From positions 1 through 58,501 of IMG/VR virus record IMGVR_UViG_3300045988_026548: 58,501 nt of DNA. One strand, written 5' to 3'. This DNA comes from a virus. The translations under genes were made by a program, and so were the position numbers. The notes under the pieces were generated by a model. It searched no databases. It worked only from the letters and a program-made list of their open reading frames with translations, and was not told where the DNA came from. Position 1 is the stretch's first letter. Every line of letters starts with the position of its first letter. Positions 30,450-57,780 of the stretch are shown here, piece after piece.

Positions 30450-30859
30450 CCTCACAGTCTCAAGAATCGGACAGCAATACAGAGCCATTCTCTGTGTCTA
30501 AGCTGTTCCACGATGTAGAAGCCTATTACATCTCCATTGGCATGACCTATGACCAGTTCTGGCGTGATGACGTCTGGCTGGCAAAGGTCTACCGGGACGC
30601 AGAAGAACTGCGCGCCCGCAGAGCCAATGTTGAAGCGTGGAGAAATGGTTTCTACACGGCATCTGCGCTTTCCTCTACGGTTGGCAATATGTTCCGCAAG
30701 AAAGGGTCTAGCCCCATCAAGTACATGGATAGACCGATTCCTCTTACTCAGAAAGAGCAGGACGAGTACGAATACCAACGCGCACTGGAAGCGCAGGAAC
30801 GCATCAAGAGAGCAATGTTCTCTATGATGAATCAGAAGGACGGTGGTAGCAATGGCTGA
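30102..30859 (+). CDS. Tail assembly chaperone G-T fusion made by a -1 programmed frameshift
   Basis: A_AAA_AAC at 30422-30428 is in the zero-frame phase; the -1 frame is open from 30428 to 30859. Confidence 0.65.
30422..30428 (+). promoter_or_regulatory. -1 ribosomal frameshift slippery heptamer A_AAA_AAC
   Basis: Zero-frame codons GCA AAA AAC; canonical X_XXY_YYZ. Confidence 0.65.
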
Positions 30860-35073: not shown

Positions 35074-35451
35074 ATGGAACTTGACCAGTACAATCCGATT
35101 CGGAGTGTGGATGGGCAGTATCTTAAATGCCCCTCTTCTTATCAGTGGCGGTTACAGGACATTTCGGCATCCGATGCCGGACGCACAGAGGATAACAAGA
35201 TGGACAAAAAACGTCTTGGACAGTGCGTCAAGCTAGAACTGGAATGGAAGTACACCACGATAAAAGAAGCCGCTGCTATCCTGAAAGCGTTCAACCCGGA
35301 ATACATCAACGTTACCTATCTTGATGCAATGGCTGGCGATTGGAAAACCAGCGAGTTCTACGTTGGCGACCGTGCTGTTCCGATGTACAATTCAAGGATG
35401 AATCGCTGGGAAGGGATATCTTTTAACATCATTGAAAGGGCTGCACACTGA
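35074..35451 (+). CDS. Distal-tail-region protein (small)
   Basis: Position after the tape measure. Confidence 0.4.
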   Translation: MELDQYNPIRSVDGQYLKCPSSYQWRLQDISASDAGRTEDNKMDKKRLGQCVKLELEWKYTTIKEAAAILKAFNPEYINVTYLDAMAGDWKTSEFYVGDRAVPMYNSRMNRWEGISFNIIERAAH

Positions 35452-37879: not shown

Positions 37880-38211
37880 GCTATCAAAAGCAGAACTTTG
37901 CAAACGGTGAAGTGCTTACCGCTCCGCAACTGAACCACATCGAGGACGGCATTGTGGACTTGGAAAGCAATTCAAGCACGGCGCTTGCTGGCAAAGCAGA
38001 TAAAACAGAAGTGCAAGCGAACGCAAAAAGCATTTCTGATGAAATTACCCGCGCCAAGAGCGAGGAGCAGCGCTTGGGCACCGCCATCACCGCCGAAACC
38101 GCCCGCGCGGAACAGGCAGAGCAAGCGCTCTCCGAGCGTACCGCAGCCCTCGAATCCTGCGGATTTGTCGTGGTTGACGGCAAGATCTGCATGAAATACC
38201 GCAAATCCTGA
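37876..38211 (+). CDS. Tail-fibre-like coiled-coil protein
   Basis: NFANGEVLTAPQLNHIEDGI N-terminus is common in tail fibres; coiled coil follows. Confidence 0.5.
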   Translation: MSYQKQNFANGEVLTAPQLNHIEDGIVDLESNSSTALAGKADKTEVQANAKSISDEITRAKSEEQRLGTAITAETARAEQAEQALSERTAALESCGFVVVDGKICMKYRKS

Positions 38212-38223
38212 AAGGAGTAACAC

Positions 38224-39507: not shown

Positions 39508-39533
39508 TCACCGGGCAATCCCTTGCCCGGTGA
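39508..39533 (+). promoter_or_regulatory. Perfect 11-bp-stem hairpin just 3' of VR (DGR target-recognition hairpin and/or terminator)
   Basis: tcaccgggcaa-tccc-ttgcccggtga begins 1 nt after the target stop codon. Confidence 0.7.
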
Positions 39534-39551
39534 GAAAGTGAGTGCTATCCC

Positions 39552-39962
39552 ATGGCAATGCGCAAAGACCAGATACCGGACAATAAATTCACGCTGCCGC
39601 TTGACGCGCGTGAGCTGGCACTGTATACCAGACAGATCACCAAAAACGCGAAAGTGTTTGACCTCGGGATTGACGCAAGTCTTCCCGGCCAGCTACGCGC
39701 TACGGCAGACCGGATATTTTTTGATATCTTCGGAGCAAACGACCTCCGGCTGGACAAGCCGAACGAAAGAGAGGAGCGCTTTAAGCTTCAAAGGCACGCC
39801 GTCCGGCTGTGCACCGTCCTTTTGGCGGAGATAGACATGGCAAAAGCCAGCTATCACCTTTCTGGCAAACGGTGCTCTTTCTGGGGCAACACTGTGCGCG
39901 ATATCCGGCAGCGTTGCCGGGACTGGCACGAGAGTGATGCAAAGCGTGCAAAAGCGCTTTGA
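39552..39962 (+). CDS. avd: DGR accessory variability determinant (four-helix-bundle protein)
   Basis: 136-aa basic helical protein between VR and TR; position and size match Avd. Confidence 0.75.
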   Translation: MAMRKDQIPDNKFTLPLDARELALYTRQITKNAKVFDLGIDASLPGQLRATADRIFFDIFGANDLRLDKPNEREERFKLQRHAVRLCTVLLAEIDMAKASYHLSGKRCSFWGNTVRDIRQRCRDWHESDAKRAKAL

Positions 39963-39984
39963 CATAAAAATGGCTGTAGGCTAA

Positions 39985-40108
39985 TGGGCCGCAATGTGCG
40001 GCTGCGCTCTGCGAATCGTGGCAACGGCAACAATGCCTTCAACGTGAACTCCAGCGGCAACGTCAACAACTGGAACGCGATCAACGCGAATCGCTGCGCC
40101 CCGGATTG
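39985..40108 (+). repeat. DGR template repeat (TR)
   Basis: Non-coding copy of VR, rich in AAC/AAT triplets at the variable positions. Confidence 0.9.
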
Positions 40109-40264
40109 GACGGCAGCACGCCCACAAAAGCCCCTGCATAGCAGAGGCCGGGCAAAAACTGCCGTGCAAGGAGCCGAGTGCCATGTCTGTCCTCTGGCAG
40201 ACGAACAATATCAGCCGGACGTGGCCACCCTGCGGGGTGTTGACCGCTATCACCCGGCAGATCC

Positions 40265-41329
40265 TTGCGAGGAGAGCTGAAAAAATCAGTGCAAGAAGAA
40301 GAAATAATAATCGGGTTCGATGCCCTGTATAATTCCGAGGGCAAGTGCGCCAAAGGCGTGTGCCGCAAGGCAAGCGTTGGACGGTTTCACCTGTTTCGGA
40401 TGGACGAGATCCTGAAACTCCAAAAGGAGCTCGCGACAGGTACATACAAGGCACGGCCAACAATCAAAGTTAGAATCACCTATCCCAAGCCCCGCACAGC
40501 GGTTGCGAATGGCTTTCGGGATAGGGTATACCAGCGCTCTCTCAACGACAATGCTGTTTATCCAGCAATGACACGGAGTTTCATCCGGCAAAACGCGGCC
40601 TGTCAGACCGGCAAAGGTACCGACTGGGCGCGCAAGCAGGTCAAGCTCATGATGGAGCGCGAATACCGGCAACACGGCGCTGATGGCTATGTGCTGTTGG
40701 TAGATATCCGGCACTATTACGACACGATGCCCCATGACGTGGCAAACCGCTGCTTTGAGCGGCATCTGCCGCCAAGTGTGCATAACCGCGTGCGTGAGGT
40801 GCTGGATCGTCAATATACCGGCGAGGCCGGTTATAATCCGGGCAGCCAGATGGTGCAGCTTGCCGGGATCTCGGTGCCCGACCCCATAGATCACTACATC
40901 AAGGAGCGCCTGCGGGCGAAAAAGTACGTCCGTTTTATGGATGATAGCCTCATCATCCACCACGACAAGGCACGGCTTGAGGAGTGGCGGGAGGCGATCC
41001 GCGCCCGGTACGCTGCCGATGGCATGGAGCTGCACCCGACCAAGACCAAGATCGTCAGGCTAAAGGATGGATTCCGTTTTCTAGGTTTCATCTACCGCTT
41101 GACCCCGGCGGGCAAGGTCGTTATGACCGTTGACCCGCAGAACGTCAAGGCCGAGCGCAAGCGCCTGTTTCGGCTTGCCCAGCTCATCAAGGCAGGAGAG
41201 AAACCGGCATCTGCCCTGTATGAGCAGTATGGATCATGGAAAGCCCATGCCGCTAAAGGCAACTCCAAAAAGCTGCTGCAGCGCATGGATCAATATGTTA
41301 AAACTCTGCTGGAGGGGATAACGACATGA
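40265..41329 (+). CDS. DGR reverse transcriptase
   Basis: RT motifs incl. VLLVDIRHYYDTM and YVRFMDDSLI (YxDD box), LHPTKTKIV; start TTG 40265 or GTG 40289. Confidence 0.9.
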   Translation: MRGELKKSVQEEEIIIGFDALYNSEGKCAKGVCRKASVGRFHLFRMDEILKLQKELATGTYKARPTIKVRITYPKPRTAVANGFRDRVYQRSLNDNAVYPAMTRSFIRQNAACQTGKGTDWARKQVKLMMEREYRQHGADGYVLLVDIRHYYDTMPHDVANRCFERHLPPSVHNRVREVLDRQYTGEAGYNPGSQMVQLAGISVPDPIDHYIKERLRAKKYVRFMDDSLIIHHDKARLEEWREAIRARYAADGMELHPTKTKIVRLKDGFRFLGFIYRLTPAGKVVMTVDPQNVKAERKRLFRLAQLIKAGEKPASALYEQYGSWKAHAAKGNSKKLLQRMDQYVKTLLEGITT

Positions 41330-41493
41330 AAATTGTTCGCAACACTGGCGGCATCAAGACCGCCGCCGAAAACGAGAACCGGGACGCGGATTTGGCACAG
41401 ATCGCGTCTATGGTAGATTTCCTGTGCATTCTGGCCGATGTGCCCATTGAGGACGAGGCCGCAGACAAGGAGGGCATGAGCCATGAGCGATAA
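41326..41493 (+). CDS. Small hypothetical protein (55 aa)
   Basis: ATGA overlap with the RT stop; MKIVRNTGGIKTAAENENRDADLAQIASMVDFLCILADVPIEDE... Confidence 0.45.
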   Translation: MKIVRNTGGIKTAAENENRDADLAQIASMVDFLCILADVPIEDEAADKEGMSHER

Positions 41494-41635
41494 GTACAGC
41501 GCGATCTTCGGCAAAGCGAAAGACGAGTACGAGGCGGGCCGCTGGTCTAAGGCTATGCTGCGCATCCTTGTGCAGCGCAAGCCCCAGCGCCTGACCGCAG
41601 AGGAGTACGAAGAGATCACCGGCGAAAAGTATTAA
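41483..41635 (+). CDS. XkdX-family protein (50 aa)
   Basis: MSDKYSAIFGKAKDEYEAGRWSKAMLRILVQRKPQRLTAEEYEEITGEKY; ...LTAEEYEEITG ending typical of XkdX, upstream of the lysin. Confidence 0.6.
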   Translation: MSDKYSAIFGKAKDEYEAGRWSKAMLRILVQRKPQRLTAEEYEEITGEKY

Positions 41636-41645
41636 GGAGCAGAGT

Positions 41646-42326
41646 ATGAGACCTATCATGGATGTTTCCCGCTTTCAGGGCAGCATCGACTGGGACAAGG
41701 TCAAGGCAAGCGGCCTTGTCTCCGGTGTGATGCTTAAAGCCGTGTCCACAAACCGCAAGCTGAGCAAGCGCAAGGATGGGCTGTACATTGACCCAACGTT
41801 TGAGCGCAACTACGCCGAGTGCAAGCGCGTTGGTCTGCCGGTTGGCGTATACTACTACACCTACGCCACCGATAAAGAGATGGCAGACGCAGAGCTTGCC
41901 TTGCTCAAGACTGCCTTGACCGGAAAAACCTTTGAGTTACCCATCAGCGTGGACGTTGAGGACAACAAAATCAAGAAGCTGTCCACGCAGTCGCTAACCG
42001 ACCTTGCCGCCTATGCGCTTGATACGGTAGAGCGCTGGGGCTTTTATGCCCTGCTGTATGTCGGACTAAATTTTGCGCAGACGGAGTTGTACATGGGTGG
42101 CGCGGCGCTCAAGCCTTATGACGTGTGGCTGGCTGCCTACCGCAGCAAAAAGCCTGAACCGGGCTGGCCGTTCGGCTTGTGGCAGTACACCAGCAAGGGC
42201 AAGATTCCTGGCGTTGTGGACGCGATACCGGGCAAGATTTCCGGTGTGGACTTGTCTGTGCCCTACAAGGACTACGCTAAAATCATCGCAAAGAAGGGTC
42301 TGACCCGTCTCCGGGAGGGCGCATGA
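41646..42326 (+). CDS. Endolysin, GH25 muramidase
   Basis: MDVSRFQGSIDWDKVK, VYYYTYA, VDVE, WLAAY, LWQYTSKGKIPGV...VDLSV. Confidence 0.88.
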   Translation: MRPIMDVSRFQGSIDWDKVKASGLVSGVMLKAVSTNRKLSKRKDGLYIDPTFERNYAECKRVGLPVGVYYYTYATDKEMADAELALLKTALTGKTFELPISVDVEDNKIKKLSTQSLTDLAAYALDTVERWGFYALLYVGLNFAQTELYMGGAALKPYDVWLAAYRSKKPEPGWPFGLWQYTSKGKIPGVVDAIPGKISGVDLSVPYKDYAKIIAKKGLTRLREGA

Positions 42327-42580
42327 GCGAAGCAATCATCGTGGCAATCATCACCGGCGGTCTGAGCCTGATCGGCGCGATCGTCTCCAACAACCACACC
42401 GCCCAGAGTATGGACGCTAAGTTGGACAAGCAGCAGGCCGTCACTGAAACCAAGCTGGAAGATCTGACCCGCGAAGTTCGGGCGCACAACAACTTTGCCC
42501 AGCGCATCCCGGTGCTGGAAGAACAAATCAAGGTGGCAAACCACCGCATCGAAGATCTCGAAAAAGAGAGAGGAGAGTAA
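42323..42580 (+). CDS. XhlA-like membrane protein
   Basis: N-terminal TM helix followed by a coiled coil ending ...VANHRIEDLEKE. Confidence 0.55.
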   Translation: MSEAIIVAIITGGLSLIGAIVSNNHTAQSMDAKLDKQQAVTETKLEDLTREVRAHNNFAQRIPVLEEQIKVANHRIEDLEKERGE

Positions 42581-42583
42581 CAC

Positions 42584-42925
42584 ATGGAAACCATTCTTAA
42601 CACCATTCTCACCCCGCTGCCCTCGTGGCTGGCACTGGTGCTCATCGTTGTGGGCGCTGTGTCGCTTGTGCTGGGGCTTATCCGTCTGGGCTACGGCGCA
42701 GCGGTCAGGACGCTGGTGCTTGACCTCATCGACCAAGCAGAACATGAGATTCAGGGCACCAAGCGCGGCGCAGAGCGCAAGGCATGGTGCGTCAAAATGC
42801 TGCGCCACTATCTGGACAACAGCCGGTGGGGCAAGCTAGTCTCGTGGGCAATTACCGAAGAGACCATGAGCAAGGTCATCCAGTTTTTCTTTGACCGGGC
42901 ACGAGCGGCACTGCAAAAGCAGTAA
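42584..42925 (+). CDS. Holin (LL-H-like)
   Basis: N-terminal TM helix, then ...GTKRGAERKAWCVKML... as in LL-H holins; lysis-module position. Confidence 0.55.
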   Translation: METILNTILTPLPSWLALVLIVVGAVSLVLGLIRLGYGAAVRTLVLDLIDQAEHEIQGTKRGAERKAWCVKMLRHYLDNSRWGKLVSWAITEETMSKVIQFFFDRARAALQKQ

Positions 42926-42935
42926 GGAGGATATC

Positions 42936-43118
42936 ATGGCAAGCACTACATACGAGCAGAAACGATTTTGTGAAATCAAGAGATGCGGCAAAATCGACCA
43001 TCTCGGTAACGTCCCTGTAATGGTGCGCAACGCCGGAGAGCTGCCGCAGCCTTTCTGGCTCGGCATTGCTCATGGCGGCGGCTCGTGTAGTGCTGCCCGC
43101 TGCGCTGCAAGGACTTGA
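42936..43118 (+). CDS. Hypothetical protein; possibly the N-terminal part of a split regulator
   Basis: Strong taaggaggatatcATG RBS; overlaps the next ORF by 53 nt in another frame. Confidence 0.4.
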   Translation: MASTTYEQKRFCEIKRCGKIDHLGNVPVMVRNAGELPQPFWLGIAHGGGSCSAARCAART

Positions 43119-43311
43119 CCGGCAGAGGATGATCGCCGCCATCAAGAACGCACCGCTTGGGAGGGTTGACCGTAAGATAGCCTTACTGCGGTACGTTGAG
43201 CGGCTTCCGCTGCCGGACATTGCAGCGCAAACACATTATAGCCGGACGGCAATCAGCTACCGGCTGAAAGGCATTGATTTGATTTTGGAGGAATCGAATG
43301 GTTGTAGGTAA
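43066..43311 (+). CDS. Sigma-70 region-4-like HTH protein (ArpU/RinA-like late regulator candidate)
   Basis: IALLRYVERLPLPDIAAQTHYSRTAISYRLKGI resembles region 4 HTH; no RBS of its own. Confidence 0.4.
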   Translation: MLMAAARVVLPAALQGLDRQRMIAAIKNAPLGRVDRKIALLRYVERLPLPDIAAQTHYSRTAISYRLKGIDLILEESNGCR

Positions 43312-43831
43312 AATCGCAAACAGTCACAATGATGAATACTATACTCCAGCGTATGCAATCGAGCCAATTCTTTGCTATATTCCAAACAATGCAAAGGTTT
43401 GGTGCCCATTTGATACAGATGAATCACTGTTCGTGAAGATGCTTGTAGCGCATGGATGCAAAGTTGTTCATTCTCATATTGCCGAAGGACAGGATTTCTT
43501 TTCAATGCCTGTCCCGGAATGCGACTTCATTGTTTCAAATCCTCCGTATTCTTGCAAAACAAGGATTTTTAAACGTCTTTTTGAAATTGGAAAGCCATTT
43601 GCTATGCTTGTCGGAAGTGTTGGGCTGTTTGACTGCAAAGAGCGATTTGATATTTTTTCGCAGAACGAGTTTGAAATCTTGTGGCTAGGCGGACGTGTTG
43701 CGTATTTCAAAAATTATTCCGACAAAGTTCCAAGCGTCAATCCGCCTTATCAGAGCGTATATATCTGTTCCGGCATTTTGCCAAACCGCATTTGTTTTGC
43801 CCCGATTGACAAAAAGCACAATGTGATGTAA
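43298..43831 (+). CDS. N6-adenine DNA methyltransferase (NPPY type)
   Basis: DEYYTP near the N-terminus and FIVSNPPYS catalytic motif. Confidence 0.6.
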   Translation: MVVGKIANSHNDEYYTPAYAIEPILCYIPNNAKVWCPFDTDESLFVKMLVAHGCKVVHSHIAEGQDFFSMPVPECDFIVSNPPYSCKTRIFKRLFEIGKPFAMLVGSVGLFDCKERFDIFSQNEFEILWLGGRVAYFKNYSDKVPSVNPPYQSVYICSGILPNRICFAPIDKKHNVM

Positions 43832-44144
43832 AATAAAACCAACAAATCCTCCCGGCCTCTCGGAGAAGCGCAAGAGGGTGGATATCTGAACCCGTCAAGC
43901 CTCTCAACGATGCGTATCATGGCGGGTCTTTTTTTGTTTTATTCGCACTAGTTTTGTCGAAACTCTTGTCTTGCAAGTCAAAACATGATATTTTATTTTT
44001 GCTTCCAATGTGAAGCCCTTAACAGTTAAGCGCTCATGCGGATTTTTCCGTGTGGGCGCTTTTTCTTTTTGTCCTTCGTTGTACCTTCGTTGTCCTTCAC
44101 TTTTTGCTGATGCGGTACACTGAGAGCACAAGGAGGGATGTTTT

Positions 44145-44663
44145 ATGAGCTATTACCAGATACCCGGAACGCCCTACGTTCCGCAGCAGCCTGTCAATCC
44201 TTACGGCGGCATGGGTACAGTAGGGCTTGCCACTTCCCTGCCAAACACGCAGATGCAGCAGCCACAGCCGCAGCGTCCGCAGCCGATGAATGGGCAGCAG
44301 CCTGTTCAGCAGTCGGCACAAGATGGCGGCTGGTTGCTTGGCAGACCTGTGTCCAGCAGGGAAGAGTTTTTGGCGATACCGTCCGACCTATACGGAAGAT
44401 GGACGTATTGCCCGGATTTGCGTAGTGGTGTCATCTACTGCAAACGTCTGAATCCAAACACTTGCGAATCTGACGTGTTAGAGTTTTACAGCCCGGAAGC
44501 ATGGCGGCAAATGCAAGCACAACAGGCACAACAGACCGCTGCACCGACACAGCAGTATGTGCCTATTGAGCAGTACAATGCCCTCGTGCACCGGCTGGAT
44601 GAACTGGAAAAGTGGCAGAAGAGCTTTTCTAAGCCCGCTGCCGCAGCAAAGAAAGGAGAATGA
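44145..44663 (+). CDS. Gln/Pro-rich hypothetical protein
   Basis: aaggagggatgttttATG RBS; low-complexity PQQPVNPYGG...QMQQPQPQRPQP N-terminus. Confidence 0.6.
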   Translation: MSYYQIPGTPYVPQQPVNPYGGMGTVGLATSLPNTQMQQPQPQRPQPMNGQQPVQQSAQDGGWLLGRPVSSREEFLAIPSDLYGRWTYCPDLRSGVIYCKRLNPNTCESDVLEFYSPEAWRQMQAQQAQQTAAPTQQYVPIEQYNALVHRLDELEKWQKSFSKPAAAAKKGE

Positions 44664-44666
44664 GTG

Positions 44667-44918
44667 ATGTCCTCTCCGTTTGATATGATTACTCACAGCC
44701 CTATCATGCAGCTTGCAAATCTGGCTCGAGCCGGGCAGAACCCGATGGGGCTTATCCAGCAGTTAAGCGGGCAGAATGCTCCTATCATGCAGGGCTTGAA
44801 TTTGATTCAGGGCAAGAACGAAGCACAGCTCAGGACGATGGCACAGAACCTCGCCAAAGAGCGTGGCATTGACCTGAACCAGCTGGCAAGCGTCCTGAAC
44901 CTGACGCTGCCCCGATAA
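44667..44918 (+). CDS. Hypothetical protein
   Basis: aaaggagaatgagtgATG RBS; internal repeat GQNPMGLIQQLSGQNAPIMQGLNLIQG. Confidence 0.55.
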   Translation: MSSPFDMITHSPIMQLANLARAGQNPMGLIQQLSGQNAPIMQGLNLIQGKNEAQLRTMAQNLAKERGIDLNQLASVLNLTLPR

Positions 44919-45044
44919 CGCATCCCCTCCTCTAAGCGAAACGCTTCTCAGTTTTGCGGACTTGACAAAAACCGCTTTTGTTTGGCTTCGCCCATCGCAT
45001 ACGGCGGTGGGATAGCATAACGCAAAACTGAAAGGAGTTTTGTT

Positions 45045-45917
45045 ATGGACGATTTTGCAACTGGCTACCTGGCCGGGCAGGACGGCGGCAATAACAACGG
45101 CGGATTCTTCGGCAACGAAGGTCTGTGGGCTGTTATTATCCTTGCCATCATCTTCGGCTGGGGCACAAACGGCTATGGCCGGAACGGTGGTGACAACGGC
45201 ATGAACGCCTACATCCCCTATCTGGTCGGCACTGGCGCAACCGGTCAGGGCGGTGCAGACACCCGTGCGGCTCTGTCTGAGGGCTTCTACCAGCAGGACA
45301 CCTCCCGCTCTCTGGCAGGCATCCAGAGCGGTATCTGCTCTCTGGGCTATGACCAGCTGGCGCAGATCAATGGCATCAACGCCAACATCGCAAGCGGCTT
45401 TGCTGGTGTGAACAGCGCCATCTGTCAGCTTGGCTACCAGAACGCACAGCTCGTGAACGGTCTGGAACGCAGCGTGTCCAACGGTGACAACGCCATCAAC
45501 CTTGCCATCATGCAGGAGGGCAACGCACGGCAGGCTGGCCAGACCGCACTTGCCACGCAGCTGGCATCTTGCTGCTGCGAGAACAAGCAGCTCATCGGCG
45601 ACCTGAAGTACACCATCGCAACAGAGGACTGCGCTACCCGTCAGGCCATCGCAGACAACGCCCGCGCCATCGTGGACAACTGCAACGCCAACTTCCGCAG
45701 CATGATGGACTACTTCACGCAGGATAAGATCGCTACTCTGACCGCTGAGAACCAGAGCCTCAAGTTCGCGGCTTCTCAGGATCGTCAGAATGCGCTTCTG
45801 ACCACCGTGATGTCCCAGCAGACCGATACCATCCTGAACCGGGTCAATCCTCGTCCGATTCCCGCTTATCAGGTGGCAAACCCCAACGTGGGCGTGAACT
45901 GCTGCGGCTGCTGCTAA
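45045..45917 (+). CDS. Gly/Asn-rich membrane protein with C-terminal CCGCC
   Basis: aaaggagttttgttATG RBS; GGFFGNEGLWAVIILAIIFGWG TM segment; ends ...NVGVNCCGCC. Confidence 0.6.
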   Translation: MDDFATGYLAGQDGGNNNGGFFGNEGLWAVIILAIIFGWGTNGYGRNGGDNGMNAYIPYLVGTGATGQGGADTRAALSEGFYQQDTSRSLAGIQSGICSLGYDQLAQINGINANIASGFAGVNSAICQLGYQNAQLVNGLERSVSNGDNAINLAIMQEGNARQAGQTALATQLASCCCENKQLIGDLKYTIATEDCATRQAIADNARAIVDNCNANFRSMMDYFTQDKIATLTAENQSLKFAASQDRQNALLTTVMSQQTDTILNRVNPRPIPAYQVANPNVGVNCCGCC

Positions 45918-46002
45918 CCAACACACTCCCCGATAACACCGGGTGAACCATCGGGGCAGGGGTAAGACACCTCTGCCCCTGATTTTTTAGGAGGAAAACA
46001 TT

Positions 46003-46374
46003 ATGGCTTGCAAAACAAGCTGCAAACTCTGCCCGCGCCTCGTCATCTCGAATGCGGTCACGTTCGCCAATGACACGCTGACCATCAACATCCCTGCTGG
46101 CGCATACCAGAACGGAGAGAAGTATTGCATCGTGGTTGCCCAGAGCATCCCGGACACGACCACCATCAACGCTCCTGTGGTCATTACCATCGGCGCAGGC
46201 ACTACCGCATACCCTCTGACCGACTGCAACTGCGCTCAGGCAACTTCCGAGAGCATCCACACCCGCACCCGCTATGCTACCCGCGTTGCAACGTCTGCGA
46301 CCGGCACCGGCACGTTCAAGTATCTTGGCTGCTTCTGCCGCTCCCACGCTGGTGCGCCCGCGTCCATTTCTTGA
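46003..46374 (+). CDS. Cys-containing hypothetical protein
   Basis: taggaggaaaacattATG RBS; MACKTSCKLCPRLVISNAVTF... Confidence 0.6.
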   Translation: MACKTSCKLCPRLVISNAVTFANDTLTINIPAGAYQNGEKYCIVVAQSIPDTTTINAPVVITIGAGTTAYPLTDCNCAQATSESIHTRTRYATRVATSATGTGTFKYLGCFCRSHAGAPASIS

Positions 46375-46387
46375 GGAGGTATAGATT

Positions 46388-47026
46388 ATGGGCAAGAACA
46401 ATTTTCGCCGCATGATGATGCTCCGTGACCACGACAAAAACCGTGAGCCGGAACGTGACCGCCTTGAGGAAGAGCGTGACCGCAGGGAGCGTGAGATGGA
46501 ACGCCGTCTGCGTAAGCTGGAAGGTGGCAACGACCGCCATCCCTACTATCCGCAGGAGGAAAACCGCTACATCGACCCTTACCCTATCCCCCGCTACCCT
46601 GACGTAGAGTATGGGCGCAAGATGCCGCAAATCGGTTTTTCGCAGAACGGCGACTGGGATAAACGGTCTGGTCAGTATGAACATGGCGGTGCGGACAGCC
46701 GCTCCATCAAGATGCCACGCCAGCACCTCACCCACGATGAAGCGGAGGAATGGTGCGACAGCATGGTGAACGCTGACGGCACAAAGGGTTGCCACTGGAC
46801 GTTGGAGCAGACGCAGGACGTTGCCAAACAGCGCAACATCACTTGTGACCCGAACGATTTCTGGGCGGTCATGAACATGATGTACTCGGATTATTGTCAG
46901 GTCGCAAAGCGTCAGTCCGTTGACACTCCGGGCTTCTACGCTGACATGGCAAAGGCGTTCCTTGAGGACGCAGATGCCGCAGATGGCAAGGCGTATCTCT
47001 ACTGGGATTGCATTGCTGATAAGTAA
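46388..47026 (+). CDS. Hypothetical protein with a charged Arg/Glu/Asp N-terminus
   Basis: tgaggaggtatagattATG RBS; REPERDRLEEERDRREREMERRLRK, then a globular C-terminal domain (...MNMMYSDY...). Confidence 0.6.
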   Translation: MGKNNFRRMMMLRDHDKNREPERDRLEEERDRREREMERRLRKLEGGNDRHPYYPQEENRYIDPYPIPRYPDVEYGRKMPQIGFSQNGDWDKRSGQYEHGGADSRSIKMPRQHLTHDEAEEWCDSMVNADGTKGCHWTLEQTQDVAKQRNITCDPNDFWAVMNMMYSDYCQVAKRQSVDTPGFYADMAKAFLEDADAADGKAYLYWDCIADK

Positions 47027-47031
47027 AACAG

Positions 47032-47070
47032 AACCCCTGTGCGGTCGTTGTGGCTACACAGGGGTTTATT
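47032..47070. terminator. Bidirectional terminator
   Basis: aacccctgtg...cacaggggtt 10-bp stem between convergent genes. Confidence 0.7.
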
Positions 47071-47071
47071 G

Positions 47072-47503
47072 TTATCTCCAAATCATAAAGCACTTATTGT
47101 CTACGCAATCTTGAAGGATTTCTTTGAAGTCTTTGAACTTTGCGGGATTTTCTCTACCAGCATATCCGTAAATAATGCTATCGTCATAATCGCCTATGAC
47201 TTTCAAAATTTCCTTGCAAGCACCGTACCGAATTTTCCCATCACAGTCTGACTGATAAAGAAAATCTGCAATTTTGATTGGAAGTTCCTTGCTTTCAACC
47301 AATCGCTCCGTTTCGTCATCGTACAATTCAAGAGCGTGTTCTTTTTCGGGAGATGGCATATCGAAAATACCATCAAGCTTTTTATAGTGTTCTCCGACTT
47401 CTGAACCAACAAGTTCTGCAACTTTCGTTCTCAACTTGAAAAAACCGAAATAGCCCACATCTATTTCACGCCCAGTCTTTTTGCATTTGATTGTTACACC
47501 CAT
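47072..47503 (-). CDS. Hypothetical protein
   Basis: 143-aa ORF, last gene of the minus-strand plasmid-module operon. Confidence 0.6.
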   Translation of the reverse strand: MGVTIKCKKTGREIDVGYFGFFKLRTKVAELVGSEVGEHYKKLDGIFDMPSPEKEHALELYDDETERLVESKELPIKIADFLYQSDCDGKIRYGACKEILKVIGDYDDSIIYGYAGRENPAKFKDFKEILQDCVDNKCFMIWR

Positions 47504-47506
47504 TCG

Positions 47507-48079
47507 TTAATCCTCCAAGAAATCCTCCAATTCAATCTTTCCTTCTGCCGCCGCAACCGCCAGAGCGTACACGAACTGTCCAATCGTCATTCCGTGCCGT
47601 CTGGCTTCACGGTTGATGTACTTGCGCTCTTCCTCGCTCATAAGGATGGTAATGCGCTTGGAACGCTTGCCATCGCCACTTGCAACGCCCTGATGTGATT
47701 CCGGCATCGGGATTTTTTTCTTTGTCAGACCAGCTTCAGCTAGTGCGCCGGGAACATCGCCTTGTTCGATAAGACGTTGAACTTCCTTTGCCTGTTTCAG
47801 CTTCTTTGGCTTACTTTCGCTTACTACGGCATTGTTCGGCTGTGTTTCGCTGTCTTTGGCTTGCTTCGGCTTAATATCGCTTAACTGTGCTTCATTAGGC
47901 TGTGTACGGCTGTCTGTGGCTTCATTAGGCTTAATCAATGCTTGTTCGGCTTCGTTCGGCTTCGCTTGGCTTACTTCTTCTTCCTTTGGCTCACTTCGGC
48001 TTAATGTCTGTTCCGAAAAAATAGGCTGAAAATCAAACCCGCCAAGCAAACCTGAGGATTTTTTGCTGGTCGATTTCAT
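47507..48079 (-). CDS. RHH DNA-binding protein with 10-aa tandem repeats (candidate centromere-binding ParG/ParR-like protein)
   Basis: C-terminal KRITILMSEEERKYINREARRHGMTIGQFVYALAV fits ribbon-helix-helix; six xxxKPNEAxx repeats; same operon as parA. Confidence 0.5.
   Translation of the reverse strand: MKSTSKKSSGLLGGFDFQPIFSEQTLSRSEPKEEEVSQAKPNEAEQALIKPNEATDSRTQPNEAQLSDIKPKQAKDSETQPNNAVVSESKPKKLKQAKEVQRLIEQGDVPGALAEAGLTKKKIPMPESHQGVASGDGKRSKRITILMSEEERKYINREARRHGMTIGQFVYALAVAAAEGKIELEDFLED
47801..48000. repeat. Array of 20 consecutive decamers, TTnnTTnGGC type (10-bp-phased GGCT)
   Basis: 14 of 20 decamers end in GGC, 3 in CGC, 1 in TGC; 30-bp super-period; lies inside CDS 47507-48079. 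Confidence 0.85.
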
Positions 48080-48603
48080 TCTGTGTCAGCCTCCTCATAA
48101 TCCGAATCTTCAAAGGACGGAGCTTCTGGTAGCGGCATCCAATGCGTCGCTCCAAGATTATTACACCAATCTGTTTTCCAAATAGGTTTACCACCGTCTT
48201 CTGGATAGAAGTAACACTGTGCAATATCTGTTCCTGTCAACGGCGATGCAACGAGGACGGGATTGCTTTCAAGTTCTCCGTTTATATCCACCATTTCTGG
48301 GTAGTGGTCGCTCACTTTAATCCATTCCTTGCTCCATAACCATTTTTCCTTGAAATATTGTACATCCTTCTTATACTGCTCTTTATCAGTGTCGCCACTT
48401 CTGTACCAATCACAGCTATGCAAAACACAAAGCAAATCGTACAGAAGCATACTCAAATCTTTGTCTCCAAGCGGATTTTCTTCTCGTGCAATAATCGAAA
48501 GCTCTTTTACACGTTCATCTGCAAGGCCATAATCTGGGTAGCAATGCTGATAAATAGCATTTGCAAGGCTGTCATTTTGATAATCCCAATGTCCACCGCT
48601 CAT
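48076..48603 (-). CDS. Protein with DUF551-like C-terminus
   Basis: C-terminal ATHWMPLPEAPSFE; overlaps both neighbours by 4 nt. Confidence 0.6.
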   Translation of the reverse strand: MSGGHWDYQNDSLANAIYQHCYPDYGLADERVKELSIIAREENPLGDKDLSMLLYDLLCVLHSCDWYRSGDTDKEQYKKDVQYFKEKWLWSKEWIKVSDHYPEMVDINGELESNPVLVASPLTGTDIAQCYFYPEDGGKPIWKTDWCNNLGATHWMPLPEAPSFEDSDYEEADTE

Positions 48604-49370
48604 TTTTCTTCTCCTTCTACAATAATCTCTGCCAACGCCTTGAAGTCCTCTGCGCTTGTGCTCTTTGCCGTGTCGCCGCTAAACAGGCTGTGCCGCTCTG
48701 CCTGCGCCTTACGAACGCCCATAGACGGTCTAATCTTCACATCCAACAGCGTTGTACCCATACTCTGTGCAATCACCGGAAGCTGCTCCACAACCTCTTT
48801 GGACAGGTTCTCCCGGCTCTTGTACTGGTTCAAAAGCAGACCTTCAATCTTCAAAGTTGGGTTGAAATATCTGCGAACATCTCCGATTGTCTGCGAAAGC
48901 TGGCTCAAACCAGCCAGTGCATATCGGTCTGCTGTGATTGGCACGATAATACTGTTGGCGGCGATCAGCGCGTTCACAAGCGCAAGACCAAGCTGCGGGG
49001 GAGTGTCCAGCACAATGTAATCATACTGACCAGACACGCTTTCAAGGGCTTCTCGTAGCCGGAAGTTCTTGCCCATGTCCCGGACGAGCTGTTCATCAAT
49101 GTCCTTCAATGCGTTGTCAGACGGCAGAATGTCACCGGCTTCACAGTGCTGGATTCCTTCTTCGACCGTACCTTGCCGTGTCATCACATCGAACAGGGTG
49201 CATACGTCCTCTGTCTGTGCGCCGTAGGTGTCCGTTGCGTTGCACTGGGCATCGCAGTCCACCAGCAGGACTTTCTTGCCAAGCAACTGCAACGCACCAG
49301 CCAGACAGGTGCTTGTGGTGGTCTTTCCTGTGCCGCCCTTCTGGTTGGCGACAGCTATGATTTTTGCCAT
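48600..49370 (-). CDS. parA: ParA/Soj-type partition ATPase
   Basis: MAKIIAVANQKGGTGKTT deviant Walker A; LLVDCDAQCN; YDYIVLDTPP. Confidence 0.9.
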   Translation of the reverse strand: MAKIIAVANQKGGTGKTTTSTCLAGALQLLGKKVLLVDCDAQCNATDTYGAQTEDVCTLFDVMTRQGTVEEGIQHCEAGDILPSDNALKDIDEQLVRDMGKNFRLREALESVSGQYDYIVLDTPPQLGLALVNALIAANSIIVPITADRYALAGLSQLSQTIGDVRRYFNPTLKIEGLLLNQYKSRENLSKEVVEQLPVIAQSMGTTLLDVKIRPSMGVRKAQAERHSLFSGDTAKSTSAEDFKALAEIIVEGEEK

Positions 49371-49387
49371 TTTATCACTCTTTCTTT

Positions 49388-49669
49388 TTAGTAGAACGGC
49401 CATGCTGCTTTTATCTCGTCTCCGACCCACAACACAGGCGTGACGTGCCATGCAATTACAGTTTCTTTGATTTCATTACTATCGGAATCAAACCATTTGC
49501 CGTTGATTGTATCGTACTCGCCGGTTATGAAACTTTTTTCTCCTGTTTTCTCATCTTCGATACGAAGTAAAAGCCCATGCGGCCATCCTTCTAGGCTTTT
49601 ATCCGGCATAACATCTTTAGTCATGTACCACTTGTCTTTGTCAAAACCTTTCGGAAACATTGGAACCAT
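49388..49669 (-). CDS. Hypothetical protein (weak DUF551-like end)
   Basis: 93-aa ORF between rep and parA. Confidence 0.5.
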   Translation of the reverse strand: MVPMFPKGFDKDKWYMTKDVMPDKSLEGWPHGLLLRIEDEKTGEKSFITGEYDTINGKWFDSDSNEIKETVIAWHVTPVLWVGDEIKAAWPFY

Positions 49670-49714
49670 ACTCTTTCTCCTTTCTGCATTATCTGCTCAA
49701 TGTGCTACATCTGA

Positions 49715-50836
49715 CTACTTCAAGAAGCTATCATCAAACGTAGCATAATCGTCAAGGTCTGCTTCTTTCAAAATTGAGTACATATAAGCGCCGGGGTCTT
49801 TTTCAATCCTATCAAGTCGCTCGCTGACTAGAATCCTGTATGCATTCTCAATGATATTCACAACAGCTTCTTTTTTCTTGTTAGGCTTGATGTTCGGATA
49901 CTTCTCCGGCAATCTCTTTGCCACCAGCTTTGCGGTCAAGATACACTGGTTTTTAGACATCTCCGGTGCAATAGATGCCCAATCCACATCCTCGTATGCG
50001 CCGCTACGGGGCTTTCTGGCAGGTCGTTGGCTCTTTGGAACATCTTTTAGCTCTACGCTTTCAACCTCGTTAGCTTCCACGTCTATGACTGGCTCATTAG
50101 ACTTGAAAGCCACATTGAACTTCACAGCAACCGCATTGCGACCTCTCATGACCTTGTCATATTCAACGCACAGGTCTGATACTTCGTTTATTTCAGCTAC
50201 CGCAATATCAATGACACGCCGCCTAAGATGCTTGAACTCTTGATAACTAGGTTCTCTTGCACCAAGCTGTTCCCTTAATCTATCCAACGTAATTTCGGGC
50301 TGGCTCACGCCACGCCCAATAAACTCTCGGAGAATCGAATACAACAAAATGCTATACTGCGATTTCATATTTGCTGTGTAGCGTAAACGGTACTTGACAT
50401 ATCCACGCTCCGCAATGTCGAAGAAAACAGGTTGCAGAAGCGGATTGCAACACAATGACACAGTAATATTCATTAAACTAGGTTCAAAGTTTACAGTTGC
50501 TCTACTGAACAGGGGATACAAGTCAAACGAGCCTGAACCGTCACCTCTAGGAACTTCAACAGAGTTGTCGATGAAATGCTTAACCTGTGCTTTCAAATTC
50601 CTAGAGTTGATTTTCAACCCCAGAAATTCGCAATATTCTTGTAACGTAAACTGAACCGTTGAAGTTTCAGGGTCTCTCGGATTGATACGGCTAAGATAAA
50701 CTTCAAGTAACCGTAGTTCTCCTGCTGTATAATCAGTGAACTTTGCCCAAACAAGCTGTCTGCTTTTTTCAACCAAGTTCCCGCCTTTAATATCAGACAA
50801 TCTTATCACGCCTCCTCTCGTATAAGAGTATATCAC
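49715..50836 (-). CDS. rep: Rep_3/RepB-family plasmid replication initiator
   Basis: LVWAKFTDYTAGELRLLEVYLSRI..., KYRLRYTANMKSQYSILLYSILREF, IDIAVAEINEVSDLCVEYDKVMRGRNAVAVKFNV; a TTG at 50800 has the better RBS spacing. Confidence 0.85.
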   Translation of the reverse strand: MIYSYTRGGVIRLSDIKGGNLVEKSRQLVWAKFTDYTAGELRLLEVYLSRINPRDPETSTVQFTLQEYCEFLGLKINSRNLKAQVKHFIDNSVEVPRGDGSGSFDLYPLFSRATVNFEPSLMNITVSLCCNPLLQPVFFDIAERGYVKYRLRYTANMKSQYSILLYSILREFIGRGVSQPEITLDRLREQLGAREPSYQEFKHLRRRVIDIAVAEINEVSDLCVEYDKVMRGRNAVAVKFNVAFKSNEPVIDVEANEVESVELKDVPKSQRPARKPRSGAYEDVDWASIAPEMSKNQCILTAKLVAKRLPEKYPNIKPNKKKEAVVNIIENAYRILVSERLDRIEKDPGAYMYSILKEADLDDYATFDDSFLK

Positions 50837-50838
50837 AG

Positions 50839-50964
50839 ATAGGTGTACAAATCAATAGCAAATGTACACCTATTTCCACTTCTTGTACACCTAACTGTCC
50901 ACATTTCGTACACCTATTTCCACAATCTGTACACCTATATCCATTTTTTGTACACCTCTTTACA
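50839..50964. repeat. Rep_3 iteron array (TGTACACCTATnTCCA, 5 direct copies at 21-22 bp spacing plus 1 inverted)
   Basis: Direct copies at 50863, 50884, 50907, 50928, 50949; inverted core ataggtgtaca at 50839. Confidence 0.85.
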
Positions 50965-51148
50965 TTATATAAAACAAGACTATTAACAAGATTATAAAAT
51001 AACTTCTACTAATAGCAGAAGAAGAAAATTTTCCACAAAATCTTTTCTTTCTCTCTTAAAAAGTGGAAAACACAAAGCGAATACTACCAAATAAACAGAT
51101 GTTCAACATCCGAAAGGTCGAAGCACTTAACGGTTAGGTTTACCTAAC

Positions 51149-51348
51149 GTGTACAAAAAGTGGATGAAAAACTTTTAAGCCGGTGTTATGGGGGACAGAA
51201 TGACAAGACACTCAATCGCAAACAATAAATTAGCGATAATCCGCTATTTATTCCGCACGAATATTGTCGATTCATAGCCTATGGGGGACGGATTGACAAG
51301 GCAAATTTGCCCGATAGGTGTACAAAAAGTGGATGAACGTGTACAAAA
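51149..51348. repeat. Paired 20-21 bp repeats A (gtgtacaaaaagtggatgaa) and B (tatgggggacRgaWtgacaag) in A-B...B-A order
   Basis: A at 51149 and 51318; B at 51187 and 51280; extra gtgtacaaaa at 51339. Confidence 0.8.
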
Positions 51349-51378
51349 TGTTCTTCAAAAACTGCGATAATTCGACAA

Positions 51379-51972
51379 TCATCCAGTTATATTATTTGGA
51401 TTTACGGTATAGGAATCATTGGACTTCATAGCAGCTTCCGTTCCAGCATCCTGCGCCTGATAGAGAATTTCCATCTTTGGGGCGGTACCGTTCGGGTCTG
51501 GGTCTGTTCCGGTGGCCTGTGCCATCTCATAGCTACCAGACACCATCCGGCAGACAGCGACCCTGTCCTTCAACGGCGTGTGGAGGTTTGCCAGAATCTC
51601 CGTCAACACGCCGATATGGTCTGAACCGTGATCTCCGTACCGGATGTACAGCAGGGCGTCTATCTCATAGGAAGAACACTCCATCATAGCATCTATGAGA
51701 ATCCGCCGTTTTTCCATGTCGGAAGGGTCGTCCTCAAGGTGTTCAAGTAGTCCCGGATGAATACAAGCGTCCATGTATCGAGCGACCGATACGCCGCAGC
51801 AGGTAAACCAGCGCATAGCCATTGGAAGGGAAATGGCTGCCAGACCTTGCTCCCAATTTGCTATCGTGCCACGATTTACGCCCATTCTTGCCGCCAATTT
51901 CTGCTGGCTCAAGCCGGAATGCATTCGCGCCATCTCTAATGCTTTGGCTGTTCTTACCAAATATTCATCCAT
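51379..51972 (-). CDS. XRE-family HTH regulator with C-terminal domain
   Basis: MHSGLSQQKLAARMGVNRGTIANWEQG HTH. Confidence 0.7.
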   Translation of the reverse strand: MDEYLVRTAKALEMARMHSGLSQQKLAARMGVNRGTIANWEQGLAAISLPMAMRWFTCCGVSVARYMDACIHPGLLEHLEDDPSDMEKRRILIDAMMECSSYEIDALLYIRYGDHGSDHIGVLTEILANLHTPLKDRVAVCRMVSGSYEMAQATGTDPDPNGTAPKMEILYQAQDAGTEAAMKSNDSYTVNPNNITG

Positions 51973-53237: not shown

Positions 53238-53558
53238 TCACATCGTTTTGATAAGCTTCATCAAGGCTTCACGTTTTTCTTTTGACATCTCCACCAACTT
53301 CTGCTCAATCCATTTGATATCCGCGTCAACTTCACCTTTCGGCTGCTGGGGCGGGTTTTCTTTTTGACTACCAGTCAGTTCTTCAACTGTAACGCCTAGC
53401 GCGTTGGCTACTGGCGAAAGCATTTCATCTGGAAAATCTCTGTCGGTAGTCAGCATTTGAGAGATATAACCTCTGCTTTTCCCGATTTCTCTGCACACAA
53501 AGGATATATTCACACCTTTGTCGGCAGCGATTTTCTTGGCTCGCTCCACATTGCGCAT
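53238..53558 (-). CDS. CI-like XRE-family repressor
   Basis: AKKIAADKGVNISFVCREIGKSRGYISQML HTH; divergent from the cro-like gene. Confidence 0.7.
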   Translation of the reverse strand: MRNVERAKKIAADKGVNISFVCREIGKSRGYISQMLTTDRDFPDEMLSPVANALGVTVEELTGSQKENPPQQPKGEVDADIKWIEQKLVEMSKEKREALMKLIKTM

Positions 53559-53618
53559 AGAAAAAGACCTCTCTTTTTGTGCAAATAGACAAATGTTTAC
53601 AGAATTGAAAATTGACTA

Positions 53619-53647
53619 TTGAAAAATAGCCACTTGGCTAGTATAAT
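53619..53647 (+). promoter_or_regulatory. Early rightward promoter with a palindromic operator
   Basis: TTGAAA-17 nt-TATAAT; spacer holds the 14-bp palindrome TAGCCACTTGGCTA (53627-53640). Confidence 0.65.
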
Positions 53648-53785
53648 ATGAAGCATAGGGCAAACAAAAACCAAGACCCCTGACAAATCTATCAGGAAGT
53701 CGCTAGAAAATGTTCACTTTGTACTTCGCAACTACATAGTAGCATATTTTCTAGTAAAATGCAAGCCAAGAAAGGAGAATGGCTA

Positions 53786-53986
53786 GTGAATCTTTCTAAA
53801 ATCGACGAGTTTCGCAAGTTACATGGTCTGTCTCGTACTGACTTGGAAGTAGCCGCTGGTTTAAGCAACGGCGCACTGGGCAAGTGGGAACGCTCCGCAA
53901 ATGGGCCGAGCATTCGACAGCTTGTGAAAGTCGCTGATTACTTCCGTGTGTCGGTAGACGCTTTGCTTGTGAGAGACAAGCAGTAA
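53786..53986 (+). CDS. Cro-like XRE-family HTH protein
   Basis: GTG with aaaggagaatggcta RBS (alternative ATG 53759); LHGLSRTDLEVAAGLSNGALGKWERS HTH. Confidence 0.7.
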   Translation: MNLSKIDEFRKLHGLSRTDLEVAAGLSNGALGKWERSANGPSIRQLVKVADYFRVSVDALLVRDKQ

Positions 53987-57722: not shown

Positions 57723-57730
57723 TTTTGTAC

Positions 57731-57780
57731 AGCCAAGTTAAGCCAAAGTAAGAACAATGAAGCCTAATGAAGCCGAAGAA
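57731..57780. repeat. Second 10-bp-phased AGCC array (reverse orientation relative to 47801-48000)
   Basis: AGCC at 57731, 57741, 57761, 57771; 57760-57774 aagcctaatgaagcc is the exact reverse complement of 47918-47932. Confidence 0.8.

Follow-up and report, generated by a model that had tools for sequence, protein, structure and literature searches.

How a temperate phage that carries no integrase might persist in its host is the question raised by a stretch of viral DNA of 58,501 nt, IMG/VR record IMGVR_UViG_3300045988_026548, the whole of which is referred to here as the window. A leftward operon (53558 down to 47072) of the window encodes a replication initiator of the Rep_3 (RepB/RepE) type, a ParA-like partition ATPase and a putative ribbon–helix–helix (RHH) protein, and an initial annotation had proposed from these genes that the prophage is kept as a plasmid and is not integrated. 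Our analysis supports this proposal through the absence of an integrase, the match between Rep and its iterons, the unit length of the contigs of relatives and the exchange of the module for an integrase in sibling phages, and we consider it most likely that the prophage persists as a circular plasmid of low copy number and does not integrate. To judge from sequence comparison, both the replicon and the partition genes are intact, with selection acting on them.

The window is best explained as the entire genome of a temperate siphovirus whose family is very common in the human gut. Its two ends share an overlap of 119 nt, giving a circular assembly path of 58,382 nt; since this overlap matches the k-mer size of the assembler (source record ena:ERZ27229850:k119_96606), what it shows is that the assembly path closes on itself, which is no proof of a circular molecule, so that of the ‘closed 58.4-kb circle’ described initially the end overlap stands and the circular molecule does not follow. 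The siphovirus virion, packaging and lysis genes, from the large terminase to the endolysin, are all present and lie in one molecule with genes for replication and partition and with no integrase, as is characteristic of phage-plasmids.

Integration and maintenance modules occupy the same site

Scanning of essentially all window ORFs of at least 130 aa against Pfam and PHROG profiles detected neither a tyrosine integrase nor a full-length large serine recombinase, as the initial annotation had stated, and left a serine recombinase of 248 aa as the sole recombinase, again in agreement with that annotation. The significance of this absence is best seen in the relatives of the window. We selected 80 related loci by a late gene, blind to the maintenance module, and inspected what lay downstream of the gene for a DUF7841 protein (46388–47026 in the window). 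A ParA or RHH gene was found there in 69 loci and a tyrosine integrase at the same site in three (in one of these, L282, matching PF00589 at 2e-20); three further contigs end within 100 nt of this point and five were uninformative. The integrase-carrying L282 is 91% identical to window positions 38014–46989 and then diverges, and the boundary at which integrase-type siblings part from the window can be placed at 46989–47072. One and the same phage backbone thus carries either an integration module or a rep/par module at a single site.

The three contigs that stop short (L245, L289 and L298) end no more than 100 nt after the DUF7841 gene, exactly where integrase-type and rep/par-type relatives part. 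Such ends could mean that a mixture of variants broke the assembly, or that the prophage truly ends here.

A comparable exchange is known from the cluster A mycobacteriophages, in which partition and replication cassettes are colinear with the integration cassettes of relatives and parABS prophages are extrachromosomal (Wetzel et al., 2020; PMC7157519). The window resembles these phages in the colinearity of its rep/par genes with a relative's integrase and differs from them in that most cluster A phages have RNA-based origins and ParB-type partners, whereas the origin in the window belongs to a Rep_3 iteron replicon that exists in four allelic specificities; hosts differ too, being Actinobacteria for cluster A and probably Bacillota for the window.

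The Rep_3 initiator and its origin

The ORF at 49715–50836 (−) matches Pfam Rep3_N (1.5e-21) and Rep3_C (6e-16), both above the curated cut-offs, as well as phrog_4402 and solved RepE-type initiators in the Protein Data Bank (PDB; approximately 4e-8), and its product has the two winged-helix domains (WH1 and WH2) of Rep_3 initiators. Its identification as a Rep_3/RepB-type initiator in the initial annotation is therefore confirmed by profile search, with a correction to the start: rep most likely begins at a TTG codon at 50800, behind the ribosome-binding site GAGAGGAGG, which gives a protein of 361 aa (49715–50800), the length also reported by independent gene calls on other contigs.

Upstream of rep, the iteron core TGTACACCT accounts for six of its seven occurrences in the window within 50841–51324, where 0.18 occurrences would be expected in the window as a whole. 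The proximal iteron array (50863–50961; unit, in the sense of rep, AGGTGTACAnnnnnTGGAnAT) is the top-scoring tandem repeat of the window in Tandem Repeats Finder (period 21, 4.6 copies, score 110). Five direct iterons at a spacing of 21–22 bp had been described here; the array is real, but it consists of four full copies and one degenerate copy lying 21–23 bp apart, with spacings of 23, 21 and 21 bp. The inverted copy that had been noted upstream of rep is also real and lies at 50839–50849. Indeed, a promoter scan places the rep promoter (TTGATT-17-TATACT, with an extended −10 TG) at 50827–50855 (−), so that the inverted half-iteron occupies its 17-bp spacer, and the inverted-repeat arms 50839–50849 and 50863–50873 are 100% complementary. 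The spacer of the rep promoter is the classical place for an operator of Rep autorepression, and the inverted half-iterons probably form such an operator, as predicted from their position.

Adjoining the iterons is an AT-rich tract (50958–51140; 23% GC in 50958–51070) that is probably the DNA-unwinding region. It holds two short repeats, TCTTGTT(T/A)A, that are kept in all four of the Rep types described below, and one site resembling a DnaA box (51029–51037). DnaA boxes were discarded as evidence for an origin, as the 14 near-matches in the window, of which one is in the origin, are not above the 11.7 expected by chance.

Exchangeable rep cassettes and a conserved distal region

Evidence on the use of this replicon comes from a comparison of 91 loci with near-identical ParA. 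Across this set, ParA is at least 97% identical, whereas the Rep proteins fall into four clusters that are 49–58% identical to one another; in one relative (L003), ParA is 100% identical to that of the window and Rep just 51%. Each Rep type has its own proximal iteron unit: AGGTGTACAnnnnnTGGAAAT for type A, to which the window belongs, CATGGGGGACnnnnTGAC for type B, CGTGTACAAnAAGTGGAG for type C and AGGTATACnAAAnCTGCA for type D. Rep type and proximal iteron type correspond at all 91 loci, and a non-cognate proximal array was seen at none. Nucleotide similarity between the window and the other types collapses within 49720–51149 and returns outside it; these sharp borders indicate that rep and the proximal iterons behave as an exchangeable cassette. 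The covariation of Rep and iterons is good evidence that the replicon is used, and we infer that the four-allele pattern is that expected under selection to escape incompatibility.

The initial annotation missed a distal set of inverted iterons (51146–51363), located between the AT-rich tract and a gene for a helix–turn–helix (HTH) protein and flanking a core with a hairpin. In the window, iterons of types A and A/C-like are found at 51146–51173 and 51315–51342, with a half copy at 51336–51363, and iterons of the non-cognate type B at 51187–51210 and 51280–51303. Distal iterons of all types are single and opposite in orientation to the proximal array. Cognate ones are present in 86 of the 91 loci and would fit ordinary control by looping or handcuffing. 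Non-cognate ones are present as well: B-type iterons occur in 30/30 A, 20/23 C and 4/4 D loci, A/C-type iterons in 30/34 B and 4/4 D loci, and D-type iterons in 16/34 B loci. The distal motifs form islands of conservation across all 73 unique sequences and, among type-A elements, diversity is 0.04–0.07 at the non-cognate B sites against 0.147 in the spacers. A rather speculative and on balance unlikely interpretation is that the distal region acts as a multi-specific iteron hub, with predicted sites for the initiators of the element itself and of its rivals. Such a hub might let a resident plasmid-prophage trap the Rep protein of a related newcomer, or handcuff it, resulting in superinfection exclusion at the level of the replicon; alternatively, it might be a ready-made docking and control locus for any rep cassette that is swapped in.

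At the centre of the distal region is the hairpin (51231–51246), which has a T-rich tail on both strands and shows compensatory change in relatives (TAGCG/CGCTA versus TAACGA/TCGTTA). It may be a terminator insulating rep from the upstream HTH gene. The latter (51379–51972, −) is directly upstream of the origin in the same orientation and encodes an HTH_3 (XRE-type) regulator, as judged by profile matches.

An origin of this kind might instead serve the early or lytic phase, with ParA having some other role and persistence taking the form of an unstable carrier state or a pseudolysogen. Rep_3-like initiators are indeed present in other phage records, and the metagenomic contigs could all stem from virions, no lysogen being known. 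However, the window has a separate replication cluster of lytic type in its rightward early operon, consisting of genes for a DUF6291 protein, a DnaB helicase (9458–10663) and a RepA_N initiator (12018–12746), the last with 23-bp repeats and an AT-rich stretch of its own. The rep and parA genes are apart from this cluster, in the leftward operon, and are transcribed with the side of the CI-like repressor. A divergent pair of HTH genes (53238–53986), one CI-like (53238–53558, −) and one Cro-like (53759–53986, +), is probably the immunity switch that heads the leftward maintenance operon and the rightward lytic operon. Furthermore, lytic growth alone would give little reason to keep a dedicated partition ATPase together with a DNA-binding partner and a repeat array under constraint (see below), and the rep/par module sits in the slot used for an integrase by sibling phages. 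We therefore judge a purely early or lytic function of the Rep_3 origin to be improbable and favour its use in plasmid maintenance.

Probable partition genes and a repeat array within the putative RHH gene

The parA gene (48600–49370, −) encodes a protein of 256 aa with the deviant Walker A sequence KGGTGKTT. Recognition of this gene in the initial annotation is upheld by matches to Pfam AAA_31 (1e-53) and CbiA, to phrog_164 (‘ParA-like partition protein’) and, aligned from residue 1, to solved ParA/Soj structures of 255–276 aa (1e-41). As a short deviant Walker-A ATPase with no N-terminal HTH domain, the protein is of type Ib. Between rep and parA is a variable slot, filled in the window by an ORF of 93 aa (49388–49669, −) whose homologue in one relative matches Phage_ProQ_C_like.

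The second gene downstream of parA (47507–48079, −) encodes a protein of 190 aa that we regard as the candidate centromere-binding protein. Its placement two genes downstream of parA was described correctly at the outset, and model folds resemble RHH proteins; the RHH assignment itself fares less well at the sequence level, the match (NikA-like, 1.8e-5) being below the Pfam cut-off. A large protein search for homologues recovered near-identical family members only, and a sequence search of the PDB gave nothing. In a single-sequence AlphaFold model the first 89 residues are disordered and two C-terminal helices are confidently predicted, and the best PDB fold matches of the model are nearly all RHH proteins (CopG, Arc, NikA and AmrZ), with E-values of 0.5–3, none of which is significant. 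The protein can be divided into an N-terminal half that is disordered, two short helices and, at the C terminus, a putative RHH domain (residues ~140–178), and the model suggests, weakly, that this C-terminal part has the RHH fold. Synonymous and non-synonymous differences in the domain number 617 and 113, respectively, a ratio that points to strong purifying selection, and the gene co-occurs with ParA at 153 loci. It is separated from parA by variable cargo, in the window a gene for a DUF551 protein (48076–48603, −).

The interval between the RHH and DUF7841 genes also varies. In 35 loci (L055 and 34 others) it contains an ORF of 329 aa in which an antirepressor-like N-terminal part is joined to a second copy of the RHH domain (KRSKRITILMSDSERTF...), and which would be a paralogue of the candidate centromere-binding protein. 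Other variable cargo found here includes an AAA ATPase of 293 aa. In the window, the last gene of the leftward operon (47072–47503, −; 143 aa, function unassigned) adjoins this variable site.

Within the RHH gene itself, in the part encoding the disordered region, we found approximately 21 tandem 10-nt units of consensus CCrAAnwAAG (core AAGCC) at 47789–48001 (−). Autocorrelation is 0.51 at a lag of 10 and 0.49 at a lag of 30, against a background of 0.26. Diversity, computed over 71 unique family alleles, tracks position modulo 10 (R2 0.18; none of 5,000 permutations as high, p≤2e-4) and shows no dependence on codon position (R2 0.02), and synonymous and non-synonymous differences in the array region stand at 399:654. 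By these measures the array is constrained at the level of DNA and not of codons. A second short array of the same units (4–5 copies; 57730–57776, +) occupies an intergenic stretch ahead of an early-operon gene for a zinc-ribbon protein and is kept in the diverged relative L003; it is a possible operator or second binding site. Phased chains of the unit were found neither in 1.16 Mb of unrelated DNA nor in the integrase-type siblings.

Because the RHH partition proteins of pCXC100 and TP228 bind runs of short contiguous repeats, we propose the array within the RHH gene as a candidate partition centromere, a proposal whose chances we put at roughly even. It is also possible, if somewhat unlikely, that the 10-nt periodicity is a by-product of a repetitive disordered linker that evolves by slippage of 30-nt units, the true centromere being elsewhere, for example in the distal region, where conserved motif islands do exist. 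Such an origin is consistent with a reading frame that is open in all 91 loci and with length variants that come in steps of 30 nt, the common multiple of 3 and 10, except for a single 9-nt deletion near the N-terminal edge; centromeres of type Ib systems, moreover, are normally located upstream of the operon (PMC3074162). Slippage of a linker does not, however, readily account for a lag-10 autocorrelation at least as high as that at lag 30, for diversity that follows the 10-nt phase and not the codon, or for an excess of non-synonymous over synonymous differences, and the intergenic second array, kept in a diverged relative, is beyond any explanation at the peptide level. The absence of phased chains from unrelated DNA and from the integrase-type siblings likewise speaks against a mere by-product of slippage.

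Our current working model, in which the binding events, autonomous replication and the plasmid state are what we infer from these features, is as follows. Monomers of Rep would bind the four to five direct iterons and open the adjoining 23%-GC tract for theta replication, whereas Rep dimers, bound to the inverted half-iterons that span the rep promoter, would repress transcription from it; the distal inverted iterons may add a further layer of copy control by looping or handcuffing. For partition, the short ParA ATPase would work with the 190-aa RHH protein, which would bind the ~21-unit AAGCC array in its own gene and the 4–5-unit array 10 kb away. Lytic growth would depend on the separate module, i.e. 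the DnaB helicase and the RepA_N initiator with its own internal repeats.

The 248-aa serine recombinase

The remaining candidate for an integration function is the 248-aa serine recombinase (19896–20642, +), an accessory gene in the family. Its Resolvase domain is complete, its Recombinase domain covers profile positions 1–77 of 102, and the match to phrog_95 (‘integrase’) spans positions 87–343 of 651; with no zinc-ribbon or coiled-coil domain, and well short of the 450–700 aa or so of large serine recombinases, it is a truncated protein of the large-serine-recombinase type and not a full-length member of that class. A broken gene was considered and rejected: homologues with 63–74% identity stop within 33 residues of the same point, which indicates a genuine short family.

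Were the phage to integrate by means of this protein, or of an integrase that escaped recognition, the rep/par genes would be a piece of plasmid picked up by the phage and irrelevant to lysogeny. The recombinase resembles the large serine integrases TP901-1, TnpX and SprA most closely and also matches the phrog_95 profile, third-party annotations in GenBank name its relatives ‘integrase’, and a few family contigs exceed one genome length. Yet the protein ends at residue 248, inside the recombinase domain, and so does not have the zinc-ribbon and coiled-coil parts by which large serine integrases recognize and pair att sites. It is carried by approximately 56 IMG/VR contigs compared with more than 555 that carry ParA; the DNA around it in contig _076039 is colinear with the window and has no junction; and siblings that are truly integrative rely on a tyrosine integrase located elsewhere. 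Covariation of Rep with its iterons, together with purifying selection on the RHH domain, shows in addition that the plasmid module is kept by selection. For these reasons we regard integration as very improbable indeed and plasmid maintenance as the better account.

Approximately 56 other family contigs (L320 and L324–L379) carry an unrelated classical resolvase of 205 aa (PF00239). In L320, the member examined, this gene (1990–2607) is upstream of the terminase gene together with a gene for a 344-aa protein, in the slot of the window's recombinase. The recurrence of serine recombinases in one slot is compatible with, and lends slight support to, the role in multimer resolution that the initial annotation had proposed for the 248-aa protein. 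Many family members may have no such recombinase. A search for a res site for the 248-aa protein found only short and unconvincing repeats upstream and downstream of its gene.

Relatives in metagenomes and the probable host

Relatives of ParA are encoded on more than 555 IMG/VR contigs. In the best 80 the protein is at least 97% identical; 53 of these contigs are of 52–63 kb, 22 are shorter fragments and five are longer, and the ParA gene has no fixed position in them and may be on either strand, as circular or permuted assemblies would lead one to expect. The 90%-identity clusters contain 6,359 sequences for ParA, 1,299 for the major capsid protein and 913 for Rep; among the members sampled, the longest listed contigs measure approximately 55–66 kb, apart from outliers of 79 and 115 kb. 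Exact-protein look-ups for ParA, major capsid protein and Rep, which returned metagenomic records only, gave no contig of more than 200 kb. A contig of 96.8 kb was considered as a sign of integration and rejected as such: past one genome length it runs on into the tape-measure, Dit and tail genes of a variant module, not into host genes, and, as the recombinase occurs in it once, it may be a chimera of two relatives.

Several points weigh against maintenance as a plasmid and must be set beside the evidence for it. The plasmid state is read from sequence and not from experiments or reads, and a circular assembly path and unit-length contigs would arise also from virion DNA or from excised circles. 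Of the 80 IMG/VR contigs, five exceed 63 kb, one of which was inspected, and one relative (L267, IMGVR_UViG_3300029466_000004; 84.5 kb, viewed beyond its first 26 kb) has a single copy of a late gene, so that it is not a simple concatemer. A scan of reference genomes for ParA returned generic ParA proteins and no close relative, the best among the matches listed being 47% identical. On the side of partition, the RHH assignment is weak at the sequence level, the binding sites are predicted ones, a gene intervenes between parA and the RHH gene, and no repeat array was found upstream of parA, the usual site of type Ib centromeres.

The 84.5-kb contig ends approximately 750 nt short of the boundary between the DUF7841 gene and the maintenance module. 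Its first 26 kb could be host DNA or another phage. Repeat searches of 46.9–49.8 kb and 51.1–54.1 kb in the window found the 10-nt array and the iterons only.

The closest cultured phage by large terminase is Clostridium phage Maintenon of [Clostridium] innocuum (ON453900; 54% identity), and the nearest plasmid Rep is encoded on a 6.9-kb plasmid of Mediterraneibacter gnavus. On the basis of these two relationships the host probably belongs to the gut Bacillota. A comparison of the large terminase with PLSDB plasmids gave no relative above 25% identity, which means that this database contains no sequenced plasmid of the window's phage family. If the element does not integrate, assignment of its host through chromosome junctions cannot work.

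Comparison with known systems

The 94-kb enterobacterial myovirus P1 is a plasmid prophage with RepA and oriR, incC and incA iterons, Cre-lox and a separate lytic replicon, and is partitioned by ParA–ParB–parS, with a long type Ia ParA, an HTH ParB partner and a downstream parS. The window is likewise the genome of a temperate tailed phage with no integrase, with an iteron-binding type of initiator, iterons flanking a control region, a ParA partition system of the active type, a site-specific recombinase encoded in another part of the genome and a lytic replication module that stands apart. It differs from P1 in its short type Ib ParA, its putative RHH partner and a candidate centromere inside the gene for that partner; the likeness is one of organization of functions, and no relationship in sequence was found or looked for.

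In partition the closer parallels are plasmid systems. The centromere of pCXC100 ParAB comprises nine 9-nt repeats and, as in other type Ib systems, is upstream of the operon (PMC3074162). That of TP228 ParFG, parH, consists of approximately 100 bp of degenerate tetramer boxes. These systems and the delta/omega pair of pSM19035 share with the window a short Walker-type ParA, and their small partner proteins, in which a flexible N-terminal tail precedes a C-terminal RHH dimer, resemble the model of the window's putative RHH protein. The omega protein binds arrays at several promoters also, and the second short array of the window would suggest similar binding at further sites. In contrast to all three systems, the array of the window is inside the RHH coding sequence and not upstream of the operon, the parA and RHH genes are kept apart by a cargo gene, and the N-terminal part of the protein, at ~140 aa, is much longer.

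As regards replication, the theta replicons of the Rep_3 group (F RepE, pPS10, R6K pi and the Gram-positive pUCL287 type) have direct iterons, an AT-rich tract and an inverted-repeat operator. The window shares with them the initiator with two winged-helix domains, the 21–23-bp iterons beside an AT-rich tract with short repeats and the inverted repeat at the promoter. It departs from them in an extra C-terminal region of approximately 130 aa in Rep, in the four exchangeable alleles within one phage backbone and in the non-cognate iterons of a conserved distal region.

Among phages, Maintenon is similar in genome size (57 kb) and siphovirus layout; unlike the window, it is integrative and encodes a tyrosine integrase together with a LexA-like repressor, and the 50 of its 57 kb that were examined have neither Rep_3 nor ParA among their annotations. 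Burkholderia phage KS14, a P2-like myovirus of Proteobacteria, is reported to persist as a plasmid. Its Rep_3-related ‘replication initiation protein’ is 34% identical to the window's over 30% of Rep.

Gut viromes have been reported to hold many phage-plasmids, and lifestyle predictors that are based on integrases can mislabel these (gut-phageome preprint). The literature that we surveyed, incompletely, contains such general reports and no description of the window's family, of non-cognate iterons or of a gene-embedded array. As a phage-plasmid the window is thus of a known kind, from which its allelic Rep cassettes, conserved non-cognate iterons and gene-embedded array set it apart. The phages described here are among those that integrase-reliant predictors can mislabel and, if the family is plasmid-borne, estimates of both lysogeny and mobile plasmids in gut Bacillota will need adjusting. 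The family also provides a natural comparison, in which a single phage backbone occurs with a tyrosine integrase or with rep/par, and with four exchangeable Rep–iteron specificities. The four cassettes and the partition unit are candidate compatible parts for vectors in gut anaerobes that are poorly amenable to engineering. Both the 10-bp array inside the RHH gene and the non-cognate iterons of the distal region are relevant to the wiring of partition and copy control, and an iteron hub together with a centromere inside the gene for its binding protein would, if true, be a maintenance architecture undescribed for phage-plasmids.

Other features of the genome

The late genes include those for the large terminase (21234–22898), portal (23804–25369), major capsid protein (26770–27846), tape measure (30843–35060), a tail protein (35451–37673) and a GH25 endolysin (41646–42326). 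Genes for ERF and single-stranded-DNA-binding (SSB) recombination proteins and for two antirepressors are also encoded in the window. A tRNA-Met (CAT) gene (23321–23398, +) is located between the large terminase and portal genes.

In the lytic-type replication cluster, the RepA_N gene, which adjoins the gene for the DnaB helicase, contains mid-gene 2.7 copies of a 23-bp repeat followed by an AT-rich 15-bp repeat (12416–12513), at a position where the encoded peptide is of low complexity. These repeats look like a lytic origin inside the gene for its own initiator, in the style of lambda O, and would be the second cis-acting array of this genome to lie within a linker-coding region.

A complete diversity-generating retroelement is present at 38224–41329. 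It comprises a target gene (38224–39507) with its variable repeat (39362–39485), an accessory gene (39552–39962), a template repeat (39985–40108) and a reverse transcriptase gene (40265–41329), and all 18 mismatches between template and variable repeats fall on adenines of the template.

The accessory-gene region contains a match to the Rfam family RAGATH-5 (14345–14397, −; 62.5 bits against a cut-off of 50). It also encodes a protein with an Mrr-type restriction endonuclease domain (16820–17665, +; Mrr_cat, 3e-32), which is possibly a defence cargo gene.

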